Position numbers and translations under genes: made by a program
The notes under the pieces: model-generated
The model's input: the letters and a program-made list of their open reading frames with translations, nothing else
What the model was told of the DNA's origin: nothing
The model's database searches: none
NCBI GenBank assembly: GCA_963169625.1
Contig: CAUJGL010000561.1
Coordinates: 1-17,232, forward strand
DNA length: 17,232 nt
From: Myxococcota bacterium
Lineage (GTDB): Bacteria; Myxococcota_A; Bradymonadia; UBA7976; UBA1532
Reading direction: 5' to 3'
In this document: piece after piece, positions 4,256-9,318 of the stretch
Layout: each line of letters starts with the position of its first letter
How positions within the stretch are numbered: position 1 is the first letter of the stretch

Positions 4256-4343
4256 GAGGCCCACCCACAGGCCGACGTCGAATTCGAACGCGAACGGGGC
4301 ACCGGGAACGAGTGCGGCGTCGGTCACGCGCAGTTGGCCGTCG
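4256..4343 (-). pseudogene. Orphan 3'-terminal fragment of a CotH-family gene (last ~29 codons), duplicating the end of the intact gene at 7441-7528.
   Basis: An ~88-bp stretch matches 7441-7528 apart from 6 substitutions, all at third codon positions. The minus-strand reading gives DGQLRVTDAALVPGAPFAFEFDVGL, identical to the C-terminus of the CotH gene. Upstream of the match the frame is Arg-rich antisense-like sequence, so no intact gene is attached. Confidence 0.6.
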
Positions 4344-4414
4344 AACCCAGCGGCCTTGCCCGGGCGGGTCAGTCGCCTCTTGCCCCAAGCCTGCGCGTCG
4401 TGCAGGCTCGAACG

Positions 4415-6523
4415 ATGAGTTCTGCGCGCGCTCCGGGGTTGTGCGGTCTTCGACAGTTCGGCTTGCTGGCCGCGGTCCTCCTGGCCCTGACCGGAGCCTG
4501 CGATCGGTCCCCGGCCGAGCGGCCCGCCCCGCCCGAGACCTCGGGTGACGACGAGCTGGAGCCCGCCCGAGCGGCGTTCATCTCGACCCTCGAGGCCCTC
4601 GTCGCGGCGAACAGCGCGCGCCCGCGGCCGCTGCACTTCGACCCGGCCGAGTACCCGGGTGAGCGGGCCTCGTTCGACGATCTGCGCGCCAGGGTGCCCG
4701 ACGGCTGTGCCCTCTCGTTCCCCCTGGGCGCCGAAGCAGAGGAAGCGTCTCACCGGAAAGCGCTCGTAGACGTGGCGGACGGACGCCGGTCGGCCACGCG
4801 CCTTCCCGCCGGCCTGGCCCGGCGACTCCTGGTGTGCCGCCCCGTCGCCGAAGCCGTGTTTCGCGCGGGCCGGGCGCTCGAGAAGGTCGAGCTGACCCTG
4901 GGCGATCCGTCGACCTCGCCCGGCCTCCTCGGGGCACAGATCACCACCCGGATCCGGTTCGCGCTCGTCGAGGTCAGGCGCCTGGCCGCCGACCCGAGCA
5001 CACGCGACGAGGCGGTCGATCGTTGCCTCGATCTGCTGGCGCTGGCCCGCGACGGGGCGACGCTCGACAACCTGCGCGCCGTCTATGTCCTCGCGCTCCG
5101 AGGCCCGCTCGCAAATGTGTGTGCGGCGGCCCTCCAGGGGGCATCGGCGCCCCGCCGCGTGCGGGCCGAGGCCTCGCTGGCCGCCCTGGAAGCCGGACTG
5201 CCGGGGGAGACGTGGCTCGCGCTGCGCAATCGCGTGGACGATGGCTTCGTCGTGCTGAGGGGCCGCATCGACGATGCGCTCATCGCGCGGGCCCCGGCGG
5301 CACTTCGCGCGTCGCTGGGCGCGATGCGAAACGAGGACTTCGGGGTGATTCGACCGGCCGACAAGGGCCGGGTGCTTGGGTTGGGCTTCGCCGTGCCCGA
5401 CAAATACGCTCGTTCGCGCACCGAGCTCGCGACATCCCTCTCCCTCCTTCGCGTCGGTTTGCACGCCCGCCGCTTTCATGACGCGCACGGGCGCTGGCCC
5501 GACCGGCCCGAGCTGGGCGAGACCGTTCCGCGGGACGCCCGCCCGGGCGGCGCCGTCGAGATGACGACCGTGGGGGCGAACTTCGTGCTGTCCGCGCAGG
5601 CGCAGGCCATGAGGGACGTCTCGCTGCGTATGCCGGGCGAAGGTGACTTCATCGAACGCGACGCGCGCGGCTTCGATGCGGCCACCGCGCCGGACACGGC
5701 CGACATCGTGGTCTATACCATCACGCCGGACGGCCGCAGCCCGTATGCCGATGCGCAGGCCGAGGTCGAGGCACGGGCGGCGGTCGAGCGCGAGGCGGTC
5801 CGCGCGTTGGCCGAGCAGATCCGCCGGAGCCCCGCCCCGGTGGCGCCGGCAGACGGAACGCTCGGCGGTCCCGAGGGCCTTCGCCGAGTCCTGGGGCCGT
5901 GGCTGACGAACGGGGGGTTCGTGCGGTCGCAGGAGATGTCGGAGCGCGATCCGGAGGTCTGGACGCGTTCCATGACCAAGGGCCGCGGGCTCTCGGGCGT
6001 CCTGGGCCCTGCCCCAGGTGCCGACGCGAGCCCGGAGACGTTCGCGGTGGCCCTCGAATGGACTCACGAGGGACCCCAATTGACTCCTGCGGAGGCGCCA
6101 CTCCTCGGCCGAGCGACCCCGGCAGCCATCGAGGCGTTCGAGACGGCGGCCGCGGCGTCGGCGGCACGTTTGCCGTTCGGACACGGCCCCCACGCGACGA
6201 GGCGACTGACGGCCCTCCTGAGCCCGCGAGACCCGCGCTTCGACGACACGGGTCACAGGTCGGCGCATCTCGTGGAGGTCGTGCTCCCGCCGGGTCTCTC
6301 CCGCGCGGAATTCGACCGCATCGTCGCCACCGGCACGCTACCGGCGGGCGCCTCGGTTCGCGAGCGGATCACCGCCGAGAACCCACACGTCGAACTGCAC
6401 GTCCGCGACGCACACGACGTGTCGACCTACGCCGAACTGATCGCGCGCGCGCTGCCCGATGCCTTGGCTGCGTTCGCCGAGGACGTCTACGGGGACGCCG
6501 TCCTGCCACCCCGGCATCGCTGA
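4415..6523 (+). CDS. Secreted protein or lipoprotein of unknown function, 703 aa.
   Basis: Trimmed from ORF 4187..6523 to the ATG at 4415, which yields the signal peptide MSSARAPGLCGLRQFGLLAAVLLALTGAC. Codon usage is GC3-biased. I recognise no domain. The overlapping long minus-strand ORF 4235..6268 is Arg-rich and judged spurious. Confidence 0.65.
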   Translation: MSSARAPGLCGLRQFGLLAAVLLALTGACDRSPAERPAPPETSGDDELEPARAAFISTLEALVAANSARPRPLHFDPAEYPGERASFDDLRARVPDGCALSFPLGAEAEEASHRKALVDVADGRRSATRLPAGLARRLLVCRPVAEAVFRAGRALEKVELTLGDPSTSPGLLGAQITTRIRFALVEVRRLAADPSTRDEAVDRCLDLLALARDGATLDNLRAVYVLALRGPLANVCAAALQGASAPRRVRAEASLAALEAGLPGETWLALRNRVDDGFVVLRGRIDDALIARAPAALRASLGAMRNEDFGVIRPADKGRVLGLGFAVPDKYARSRTELATSLSLLRVGLHARRFHDAHGRWPDRPELGETVPRDARPGGAVEMTTVGANFVLSAQAQAMRDVSLRMPGEGDFIERDARGFDAATAPDTADIVVYTITPDGRSPYADAQAEVEARAAVEREAVRALAEQIRRSPAPVAPADGTLGGPEGLRRVLGPWLTNGGFVRSQEMSERDPEVWTRSMTKGRGLSGVLGPAPGADASPETFAVALEWTHEGPQLTPAEAPLLGRATPAAIEAFETAAAASAARLPFGHGPHATRRLTALLSPRDPRFDDTGHRSAHLVEVVLPPGLSRAEFDRIVATGTLPAGASVRERITAENPHVELHVRDAHDVSTYAELIARALPDALAAFAEDVYGDAVLPPRHR

Positions 6524-7399: not shown

Positions 7400-7431
7400 G
7401 ACGCCGAGTGTAGGGTGATGACAATAGGGCA

Positions 7432-9318
7432 TCAACGCCCGAGGCCCACCCACAGGCCGACGTCGAACTCGAACGCGAACGGGGCCCCCGGCACGAGCGC
7501 GGCGTCGGTCACGCGCAGCTGGCCGTCGCGGCAGTCGGCCAGGTAGGTCGCCGCGCCAGTCTCGACGTCGAAGACGTTGAGTGAACAGGCCGGCAACTGC
7601 GCGGCGTCGAGCTCGCCCGGCGTGATCTGTTCGCGGTCGAAGGCGAGGTACACGAACCAGAGCGCGCCGTCGGCCATCGAGAGGGGCACGAGCGCGATGG
7701 CCTGCCCGTTCTCGTCGAGCCCGGCGGCCCCGCCCACGGCACGGACGGCGAGCGGAACGTCGCGGTAGGTGCCCTCCAGACGCCCCGAGCCCGAACGGAA
7801 AGTGTCGTCCGTGGGCCACGAGGCCCAGGTCGTCTGACTCGCCCCGTGCAGCTCTCCGGCGGGCACCGTGCAGAACGACGGCCGCAGCGGATAGGGCCAG
7901 GGTACGTCGCCCCGGAGGAGCTCGGCCTCGAGCCGCCCGCGCTGCCCGGCCACCCAGGTGAGCAGTTCGGCGACGGCGCGGGTGTGATCGGCGCGTTGCT
8001 GGGGCGGCATGCGGGGTCCGACGAGGGCGGCCAGGCGGTCGAGTCGTGTGAGCAGCGCGTCCGTCGACCAGTGATCGACCACCATGCGGGCGAGCGTCGT
8101 CAGATACGCCCGTCGACCCTCGGGGTGCAGGTACAGACGGCGCGCGAGGATGCCCGTCGCCAGGACGGACGCGGGCGCGATCTGCCCCTCGAAGAAGACG
8201 CGGGGCGGTTGCAGCGCTCCGTCCGGCCCCCAGGGCAGGAACACGAGCCGGCCGCCCTGCGCGGGGTCCTCGTAGAGCCAGAAGTTGTTGGTGTTGCCCG
8301 CGTACCCGTCCCAGTGCGCGATCATCACCTCGGCCGCCCAGAATCGGTAGAACGCCGGCAGATCGAGCACCGCGCCGAGCGCGTCGAGCAGCGTCTCGTC
8401 GGGCGCCGCGGCGGCCGCGGTGACGGCGTCGAGGGGCGCCCGGTGGGGCACGTCCTCGTCCGTCTTCTGTTCGATGGTGCCCGACCACCCGGGCCGGAAA
8501 TCACTCAGCGCACCCTCGTACAGATGCCCCTCGTCGTCGCTGAAGTGCCGACGCAGGAACGGTTTGCGAATGCTCTCGACGTGCGCGTACAGGCCCAGAT
8601 CCTCGCCGTTCACCGTGACCTGCGCGAAATGACACCGCGGCGCGGGCACGCCCGCGTCGGCGAGGATGCTGTACGAGAGGCATGTCCGCAGCCGACTGGG
8701 ATCCTGCTTGCCGTTGTTGAGGGCGATGCGCGTCAGCGTCTCGTGGGCCTGCCCGTCGACGTTTCGGTCGAGGTCGAGCACGATCGACGGCCGCGACCGG
8801 CTCAGCGAGCCGAAGAAGCCCTTCTTGCGCACCCCGACGCGGGCATACGGTCGCCCGTCGAGGGTCGCGTCGCCCTCGAACCATGTGTAGGGCGACGGAA
8901 AGGGCGCGTCCATGCAGTCCGCCCCGCGGGTATCGAGATCCGTGCGGCCCTGTTGCCGTAGCGCCGCCCAGTCCGCGGGGGGCAGCGTCACCTCGACGGT
9001 CATCACATGGTCCCAGTCGAAGACGGCGTCGGTGGGGTCGGTGGGATCGACCGGCTCGACGGGCGGACCGGCGTCGGGCACCACGCGAGCGTCGGCGCCG
9101 GGTGCGTCGAGAGCATCGACAAACGCCACGCGCGCGTCGTTCGACCCGTCCGTTCCGGACGCCGGCGGGCCGCGGTCGATGGTGTCTTCCGGAACGGAGC
9201 GAGCGTCGTCGGGCCGCGCCGCGTCTGCACTTGTCGATGTGTCGCTCGAAGTCTCGGTGCAGGCCTGCATCCCCACGACGACGAACACACCCATCGCGCG
9301 CCGCAGGAGAGCGTTCAC
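7432..9318 (-). CDS. CotH-family protein (atypical kinase fold), secreted lipoprotein.
   Basis: 628 aa. The signal peptide MNALLRRAMGVFVVVGMQAC is followed by an Asp/Pro-rich linker. CotH-like motifs are present: 'VRKKGFFGS', 'NTNNFWLYED', 'LVFLPWGPDGAL'. The GTG start at 9318 overlaps the sthA stop (GTGA). Confidence 0.8.
   Translation of the reverse strand: MNALLRRAMGVFVVVGMQACTETSSDTSTSADAARPDDARSVPEDTIDRGPPASGTDGSNDARVAFVDALDAPGADARVVPDAGPPVEPVDPTDPTDAVFDWDHVMTVEVTLPPADWAALRQQGRTDLDTRGADCMDAPFPSPYTWFEGDATLDGRPYARVGVRKKGFFGSLSRSRPSIVLDLDRNVDGQAHETLTRIALNNGKQDPSRLRTCLSYSILADAGVPAPRCHFAQVTVNGEDLGLYAHVESIRKPFLRRHFSDDEGHLYEGALSDFRPGWSGTIEQKTDEDVPHRAPLDAVTAAAAAPDETLLDALGAVLDLPAFYRFWAAEVMIAHWDGYAGNTNNFWLYEDPAQGGRLVFLPWGPDGALQPPRVFFEGQIAPASVLATGILARRLYLHPEGRRAYLTTLARMVVDHWSTDALLTRLDRLAALVGPRMPPQQRADHTRAVAELLTWVAGQRGRLEAELLRGDVPWPYPLRPSFCTVPAGELHGASQTTWASWPTDDTFRSGSGRLEGTYRDVPLAVRAVGGAAGLDENGQAIALVPLSMADGALWFVYLAFDREQITPGELDAAQLPACSLNVFDVETGAATYLADCRDGQLRVTDAALVPGAPFAFEFDVGLWVGLGR

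Follow-up and report, generated by a model that had tools for sequence, protein, structure and literature searches.

Insertion with long target duplication (Nobusato and Kobayashi 2000, as cited in Furuta, Abe and Kobayashi 2010, PMC2853133) is recognised by an insert of less than 20 kb, a duplication of more than 30 bp, the absence of mobility genes, and flanking repeats that align to a single copy at the empty site and are otherwise unique (PMC2853133). The published repeats are 45-420 bp long, and some of them overlap the 3′ end of a gene. Their cargo consists of restriction-modification genes, and DNA breakage by these has been proposed as the driver (PMC2853133). Cis-mobilizable elements (CIMEs) are decayed remnants left by integrative and conjugative elements (ICEs) or integrative and mobilizable elements (IMEs), which keep attL and attR (PMC5704250). 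Here we describe an islet in contig CAUJGL010000561.1 of a Myxococcota bacterium (assembly GCA_963169625.1); the whole stretch of 17,232 nucleotides is referred to as the window. The islet is an inserted segment of 3,096 bp (4344-7439, delimited by blastn of the window against related loci). It carries a vapBC toxin-antitoxin (TA) pair and a probable lipoprotein gene, and lies between two direct copies of the 3′ end of a CotH-family gene, here called R. The reading we favour, with some reserve, is that of an old insertion at the CotH 3′ end in a freshwater Myxococcota (Bradymonadia-like) population, which would have arisen by recombinase-less long target duplication and would since have been maintained as a polymorphism run by recombination. 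The islet is real but a fairly ordinary unit of gene gain and loss, and it reveals no new mechanism.

A repeat search of the window placed the two copies of R at 4255-4343 and 7440-7528, both reading on the minus strand. The copies are 89 nt long and 83/89 identical (93%), and an in-register comparison showed that the similarity begins and ends sharply at either boundary. The initial annotation had started the repeats at 4256 and 7441; its coordinates were otherwise accurate, and R reaches one base further at the low-coordinate end. The mismatches are at 4283, 4301, 4304, 4307, 4313 and 4334. All six are synonymous and affect the third base of a codon in the minus-strand CotH frame (codon pairs GAA/GAG, GGT/GGG, CCC/CCG, GTT/GTG, GCA/GCG and CAA/CAG), and either copy encodes the peptide DGQLRVTDAALVPGAPFAFEFDVGLWVGL. 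The same comparison bears out the earlier description of direct repeats with six synonymous differences. By our own arithmetic, the chance that six mismatches placed at random would all be at third positions is about (1/3)^6 = 0.0014. Exact direct repeats in the window reach a length of 28 nt, compared with 14-18 nt in 20 shuffled sequences, and R is far beyond chance. The next-best repeat families of the window are no longer than 63 nt, with about 73% identity.

Related loci were gathered by CotH scans, by look-ups of lipoprotein homologs and by an exact look-up of a 61-aa protein encoded near the insert. Contig L013 (Logan ERR10643351, 20.7 kb) is the source contig and is identical to the window; L022, L026 and L027 come from the same strain. 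The site is occupied with the same junctions in L001 (Myxococcota MAG.78, a metagenome-assembled genome; about 98% identical to the window) and in L009 and L010 (about 95%). L004 (about 88%) is occupied but decayed. The site is empty in L006 and in L017-L021, L023 and L024, which represent one strain in seven samples; these contigs are 96-98% identical to the window. In all eight empty-site contigs, the window from 7440 onward and from 4343 downward maps with an overlap of exactly one 89-bp copy, with the CotH-type flank upstream and the orphan-type tail and flank downstream. The initial annotation had predicted an empty site with a single CotH 3′ end, and had regarded carriage of the segment by all relatives as evidence against an islet. 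The predicted site is present in close relatives, and 4344-7439 is an insertion/deletion polymorphism. When the fetched loci were searched with the R peptide, each occupied locus gave exactly two matches and each empty locus one. R is therefore not a member of a dispersed multi-copy family, the other outcome that would have spoken against the earlier proposal. An assembly artefact was rejected, as the same two-copy layout is seen in several independent assemblies (L001, L004, L009, L010 and L013).

The anatomy of the locus agrees in most respects with insertion with long target duplication. The insert is 3,096 bp and the duplication 89 bp, far exceeding transposon duplications; there is no transposase or integrase; and the repeat aligns to one copy at the empty site and is otherwise unique within the fetched loci. 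The cargo is of the addiction type, and the flanking repeats permit its later loss. Unlike in the published cases, this cargo is a TA pair with a lipoprotein gene and not a restriction-modification system, the host belongs to a Myxococcota lineage, and the repeats appear reshuffled by recombination in the population. The insertion came with a duplication of at least 89 nt of the CotH coding end. The far copy of R is the displaced original 3′ end, and the near copy now completes CotH with four further nucleotides and a stop codon supplied by the incoming DNA. The founding event was presumably independent of a recombinase. Integration by a single crossover of a circular DNA carrying a CotH 3′ fragment would be an equivalent route, with the same product. 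Long target duplication fits this anatomy at least as well as a degraded island does.

The CotH gene (7432-9318, minus strand) has a longest open reading frame (ORF) of 628 aa and was called as 620 aa on the source contig. It matches Pfam CotH (PF08757) with 116 bits against a gathering cut-off of 23.8, and its dN/dS of 0.05-0.22 indicates purifying selection. An exact look-up of the protein gave no match because the start of the longest ORF differs from that of the called gene. The initial annotation had taken 7441-7528 as the true 3′ end of this gene and 4256-4343 as an orphan fragment. Comparison of the C-termini reverses this order. The orphan copy (4255-4343, minus strand), which corresponds to the last 89 nt of the CotH coding sequence, runs in frame into ...WVGL-DAAAGE-TAA, and this tail with its TAA stop occupies 4235-4254 on the minus strand. 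CotH genes at empty sites terminate in ...WVGLDTAAGE. The Bradymonadia outgroups L002 and L005 end in WVGVDDAPAP and WVGVDDA, respectively, and the intact CotH of L004 terminates in WVGLDAAPEEVP. The working CotH genes of the window, L001, L009 and L010, which use the copy at 7440-7528 or its counterpart, end in ...WVGL-GR, and a GR terminus is found only beside the insert. The outgroup and empty-site tails match that of the orphan; therefore the orphan with its ancestral tail and flank is the original 3′ end, and the GR ending is derived. The called CotH is 624 aa long in empty-site contigs and 620 aa in occupied contigs, and the four extra residues are consistent with this order.

The same comparison bears on whether the orphan is the last remnant of a tandem CotH paralog, otherwise deleted or overwritten, and not a by-product of insertion. 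CotH genes are often present in multiple copies in bacteria, and the orphan has the same orientation as CotH. Against this, the identity of 93% falls abruptly to background at 4343/4344, and residual CotH homology upstream of the orphan was looked for and none was found. The tail and flank of the orphan are the normal downstream sequence of the single CotH in empty-site contigs, and no relative has two full CotH genes at the locus. The empty sites effectively refute a paralog remnant, and it is the least credible of the explanations that we considered.

The derived end of CotH can be read from the edge of the vapBC cassette. The VapC nearest to that of the window found elsewhere (P0009, 81% amino acid identity) is encoded in L014, where the surroundings hold other TA genes and neither CotH nor the lipoprotein gene. 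At the nucleotide level, the homology between the vapBC region and L014 covers window 7435-6708, with window 7435 corresponding to L014 2680. It starts exactly at a -35 hexamer, which opens the stretch 7400-7435 of the window and 2680-2715 of L014. The alignment to L014 thus marks 7400-7435 (minus strand) as the upstream edge of the cassette, containing the promoter-like sequence TTGATG-17-TACACT (7435-7407). The corresponding sequence of L014, TTGATG-17-TATAAT, scores 10/12 and the window version 8/12. A promoter scan of the window gave no site above the scan threshold, and the promoter-like reading rests on the L014 homolog and the alignment. Between R and the cassette there is a filler of 4 nt, GGCG (7436-7439, minus strand). 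The filler and the cassette bases 7435-7434 encode the derived tail codons G and R, and the CotH stop TGA (7434-7432) falls within the -35 hexamer of the promoter-like sequence. A target gene can thus survive an insertion at its 3′ end by taking its stop codon from the promoter of the incoming cassette, and the exact edge of a mobile vapBC cassette can be traced to its -35 hexamer. The gap of just 7 nt between the -10 element and the vapB ATG suggests that the vapBC transcript is leaderless or near-leaderless.

The cassette itself consists of two genes on the minus strand. vapC (6675-7148) is predicted to encode a PIN-domain ribonuclease toxin (Pfam PIN; TIGR00028 with 93.8 bits against a cut-off of 73.6), and vapB (7145-7399) a ribbon-helix-helix (RHH) antitoxin (Pfam RHH_1 with 21.5 bits against 20.5). 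The stop of vapB and the start of vapC share 4 nt (GTGA). Type II TA systems of the VapBC kind are operons in which the gene for a small DNA-binding antitoxin precedes that for a PIN-domain VapC, and we assign the pair to them from its predicted domains. It resembles other mobile chromosomal vapBC cassettes in its RHH antitoxin and TIGR00028-type VapC, the 4-nt overlap, its own promoter-like sequence, a GC content at third codon positions (GC3) below that of host genes, a nearest relative in an unrelated context, and pseudogenisation in some strains. It differs from them in that the exact cassette boundary and the empty target site can both be read here.

The rest of the insert is mostly occupied by a gene for a probable lipoprotein of 702 aa (4415-6523, plus strand), with a signal peptide ending ...LALTGAC and a Cys29 that is invariant in four homologs. 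There is no Pfam or NCBIfam match. The family is very small and lineage-restricted: 5.8 billion proteins yielded four clusters, and 1.84 billion representatives yielded five. A structure prediction from the four-sequence alignment reached a pLDDT of 40 and was unusable. The gene evolves fast (dN/dS 0.4-0.6, compared with 0.05-0.2 for the MFS transporter, CotH and oxidoreductase genes) and is intact in four strains. Its homologs, with 73-75% amino acid identity, occur in two other contexts, L011 and L012. There the homology covers only the ORF (window 4458-6530), and flanking repeats around the homologs were looked for and not found. These genes agree with the earlier description of a signal-peptide protein without recognisable domains, a vapBC pair and no integrase. 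GC3 is 0.85 for the lipoprotein gene, 0.80 for vapC and 0.77 for vapB, compared with 0.89-0.95 for neighbouring core genes, and the same three genes have the poorest codon-usage fit; the deviation that the initial annotation had looked for is present. The alignments indicate that the insert combines two modules, a minimal vapBC cassette that runs from promoter to stop and the lipoprotein gene of restricted lineage, and each of them occurs by itself in unrelated contexts. Among the loci fetched, the whole 3.1-kb unit is seen only at the CotH locus. The stretches of the insert without homologs in those loci are 4344-4457 and 6531-6707, and the two cargo modules cover nearly all else.

The lipoprotein gene lies near a PIN-type TA pair in three unrelated contexts (window 4415-7399, L011 4032-6825 and L012 117-4195). 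The TA family is RHH/PIN in the window and Phd-YefM/PIN in L011 and L012. The gene and the pair are adjacent in the window and in L011, where the PIN stop overlaps the lipoprotein start, and are about 1.4 kb apart in L012. This proximity may be a coincidence or may reflect a functional link. An antisense ORF at 4235-6268 (minus strand), which contains the orphan R in frame, was rejected as a gene, since its product is arginine-rich nonsense and it overlaps the conserved plus-strand gene.

The initial annotation had interpreted the islet as a possible integrative element. In this explanation, an ICE, IME or prophage with an integrase directed to the CotH 3′ end would have brought an attP copy of that end, and its integrase and transfer genes would later have been lost, leaving attL and attR. 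The direct repeats derived from the target 3′ end, the CotH gene that is still complete, and the single-copy empty site are as expected from such a site-specific element. The deviating GC3 and the TA module are typical of islands, deletions are frequent at the CotH locus, and the CIME concept is established (PMC5704250). The anatomy is compatible with a CIME: the islet is a recombinase-less, cargo-only segment, and the direct repeats that bound it take in the 3′ end of the target gene and would be the att sites. A Pfam search found no integrase, transposase or excisionase in the insert or in the 20.7-kb source contig. No recombinase was found in 10 kb upstream in L009, in the precomputed Pfam annotation of L010 or in the additional flanks of L001, and the search beyond the insert that had been proposed earlier was thus negative. 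In none of the five occupied contigs does the insert, or the sequence within about 20 kb of it, contain an integrase, excisionase or transfer gene, or even a fragment of one; the cargo modules and the stretches 4344-4457 and 6531-6707 account for nearly all of the insert. Unlike in a CIME, just 4 nt separate R from the cargo cassette, too few for an att arm. Neither a related ICE or IME nor an integrase or att specificity is known for the CotH site, and there is no tandem accretion. R was absent from viral contigs in a scan, searches did not find the lipoprotein gene in plasmids, phages or viral contigs, and neither the fetched loci nor the viral contigs showed the same element or att sequence on a mobile carrier or a second cargo at the CotH site. 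The explanation has no positive support beyond the repeats. With no recombinase within about 20 kb, and with the vapBC cassette and the lipoprotein gene occurring separately elsewhere, the label of integrative element is not established. A decayed element of this kind is the principal alternative and is rather unlikely, and the islet is probably not an active site-specific element. Integron cassettes and Xer/dif-type integration were considered and set aside on general grounds; R is an ordinary coding sequence and does not look attC- or dif-like.

The history of the two R copies supports a role of homologous recombination at the locus. Across strains, the haplotypes of R do not sort by position, orphan or functional. 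Haplotype B, defined by G7, G9A10, A17, T43 and C76, includes two non-synonymous changes, Q-to-R and V-to-M. L009 and L010 have it in both their functional and their orphan copies, and L001 has it in the functional copy. The orphan of L001 is 87/89 identical to the functional copy of the window. Five of the six variants that separate the two copies of the window occur in intact, single-copy CotH genes of empty-site strains (A10, A31, C40 and T43 in L017-L024, and A61 in L006), and T37 is the sole variant private to the window orphan. The view of the initial annotation that the synonymous divergence came from intact genes of a related lineage and not from neutral decay is supported by these shared alleles. 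The window and L001, which are about 98% identical overall, form a mosaic of long tracts of 100% identity and tracts of 92-96%. The divergent tracts cover the orphan and its flank (4001-4400) and the region from vapB to CotH (7201-8800).

These patterns indicate that recombination, and not selection on the orphan, explains the synonymous-only differences. Alleles would have been filtered by selection inside working genes and later moved by homologous recombination, either by conversion between the two copies or by exchange with other strains. Exchange with empty-site and occupied strains would shuffle R haplotypes between the orphan and functional positions, which would account for two copies that differ at synonymous sites only. 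Selection on the orphan is not needed when its alleles are borrowed from intact genes. A synonymous-only divergence between a gene and an orphan copy therefore need not mean selection, since allele shuffling by recombination can mimic purifying selection.

A functional orphan, kept by selection because it is translated into a small peptide or serves the divergent lipoprotein gene in regulation or as a promoter element, would also produce synonymous differences such as the six of the window. The frame is open to the stop in the window, L001, L009 and L010, and in L009 and L010 a 30-aa ORF is predicted there by JGI gene calling. The borrowed alleles described above argue against it, as do the lack of an ATG in the window copy and the non-synonymous change between strains of the in-frame sequence just upstream of R (RPGK versus RRGE). 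In L004 the orphan R carries four amino acid changes, is truncated and is 58/78 identical to the functional copy of the same locus; homogenisation is not evident there. The second copy is wholly missing in the empty-site strains. We regard a selected function of the orphan as very improbable.

The insert has decayed in several strains. vapC is intact in the window, L009 and L010, whereas its 3′ half is deleted in L001; L009 has a frameshift in vapB, and L004 has lost almost the whole insert. L004 keeps both copies of R, and the roughly 400 bp between them consist of both termini of the lipoprotein gene and part of vapB. With 87-88% identity to the window, these remnants show the same divergence as the L004 flanks; therefore the insertion predates the split of L004. 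In phylogenies of every flank segment, the empty-site strains nest among occupied strains and L004 is the outgroup. Since its insertion, the locus may thus have persisted as a presence/absence polymorphism run by homologous recombination, as the haplotypes suggest, with the cargo decaying in some lineages. Recombination between the two R copies would remove the insert and restore a perfect empty site. Occupied, decayed and empty states have all been sampled, and the locus is a clean natural example of a small accessory islet that enters and leaves the chromosome without a recombinase of its own.

Several points weigh against an old insertion by long target duplication followed by recombination. 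The comparators are all metagenome contigs or metagenome-assembled genomes. The mechanism of the founding event is not observable, and the same anatomy would result from an integrase that acted in trans or has since been deleted. VapC is an RNase, so that the DNA breakage proposed as the driver for restriction-modification genes is missing here. The empty sites may result from scarless deletion between the repeats or from an old allele persisting through recombination; the two look alike because deletion between repeats leaves no scar. The right junction of L004 also differs from the others, since the ancestral tail is followed there by the vapB remnant, and this makes the original length of the duplication and the point of insertion uncertain. 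Deletion cannot create the ancestral tail of L004; thus the original duplication may have been longer, extending from the repeat through tail and stop for about another 14 nt, and may have been trimmed differently in each lineage. Short matches give weak support to this longer duplication (TCGGGCG following the stop in L004, CTCGGGCG at the junction in the window and GCGGGC following the orphan stop).

The locus extends the pattern of long target duplication from restriction-modification genes to TA cargo. A broader and decidedly speculative proposal, to which we give little weight, is that minimal promoter-to-stop TA cassettes spread by recombinase-free long target duplication, and that the duplication serves as a reversible switch, with scarless loss and regain from occupied strains. 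If this were true, long target duplication would be a general entry mode of addiction modules and not a peculiarity of restriction enzymes, and such islets would be kept as long-lived presence/absence polymorphisms.

The original flank of the insertion site contains a small gene for the 61-aa protein and a 158-aa nucleotidyltransferase-like gene (3451-4109, minus strand), with weak matches to AbiEii/NTP_transf_5. The pair resembles a second TA-like pair and is itself an indel polymorphism. It is intact in the window, L001 and L017-L024 and half lost in L006; deletions have removed it from L004 and from L009 and L010, in the latter two at window 3530-4225. To its left, together with an MFS transporter gene, lies a gene for a Cys-rich secreted protein (2349-3452, minus strand). 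Pfam and NCBIfam gave nothing convincing for the 61-aa and Cys-rich proteins, the latter having a weak Dickkopf_N match. The Cys-rich gene diverges much faster than its neighbours, with 88-93% nucleotide identity compared with 97-98% for the adjacent MFS gene, and a dN/dS of 0.2-0.3. Where the window has the nucleotidyltransferase-like and Cys-rich genes, L006 carries an IS4-type transposase (1471-2772, minus strand; Pfam DDE_Tnp_1, motif LYRCRWEIECDNRRDK). This is the only mobility gene seen at the locus, and the strain is one with an empty site. In the Bradymonadia outgroup L002, the interval between the MFS and CotH genes (8615-10897) has by look entirely different genes; judged by eye from the translations, they encode a putative Uma2-like endonuclease, an NAD-binding SDR-like protein and a TetR-like regulator. 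The stretch between the two genes thus appears to be a hotspot of gene flux in general.

A gene immediately upstream of the MFS transporter gene, which it overlaps, encodes a protein of 838-841 aa (window 121-1098, partial; L013 2034-4550; L001 17945-20470) that is a bacterial homolog of the eukaryotic major vault protein, with Pfam matches to MVP_shoulder (95 bits) and Vault_3. On the other side of the window, an ECF sigma/anti-sigma pair is followed by a gene for a 1,427-aa S8 peptidase with CarboxypepD_reg and Malectin domains (11963-16246, plus strand), and beside it lies a gene for a cytochrome P460-like protein (16261-17151, minus strand). Tandem 18-nt repeats (CGCCGGGC.CGCC.CCGCC) with at least four units occupy 17142-17232 and continue past the window end; read on the minus strand, they would specify a Gly/Pro-rich repeat.

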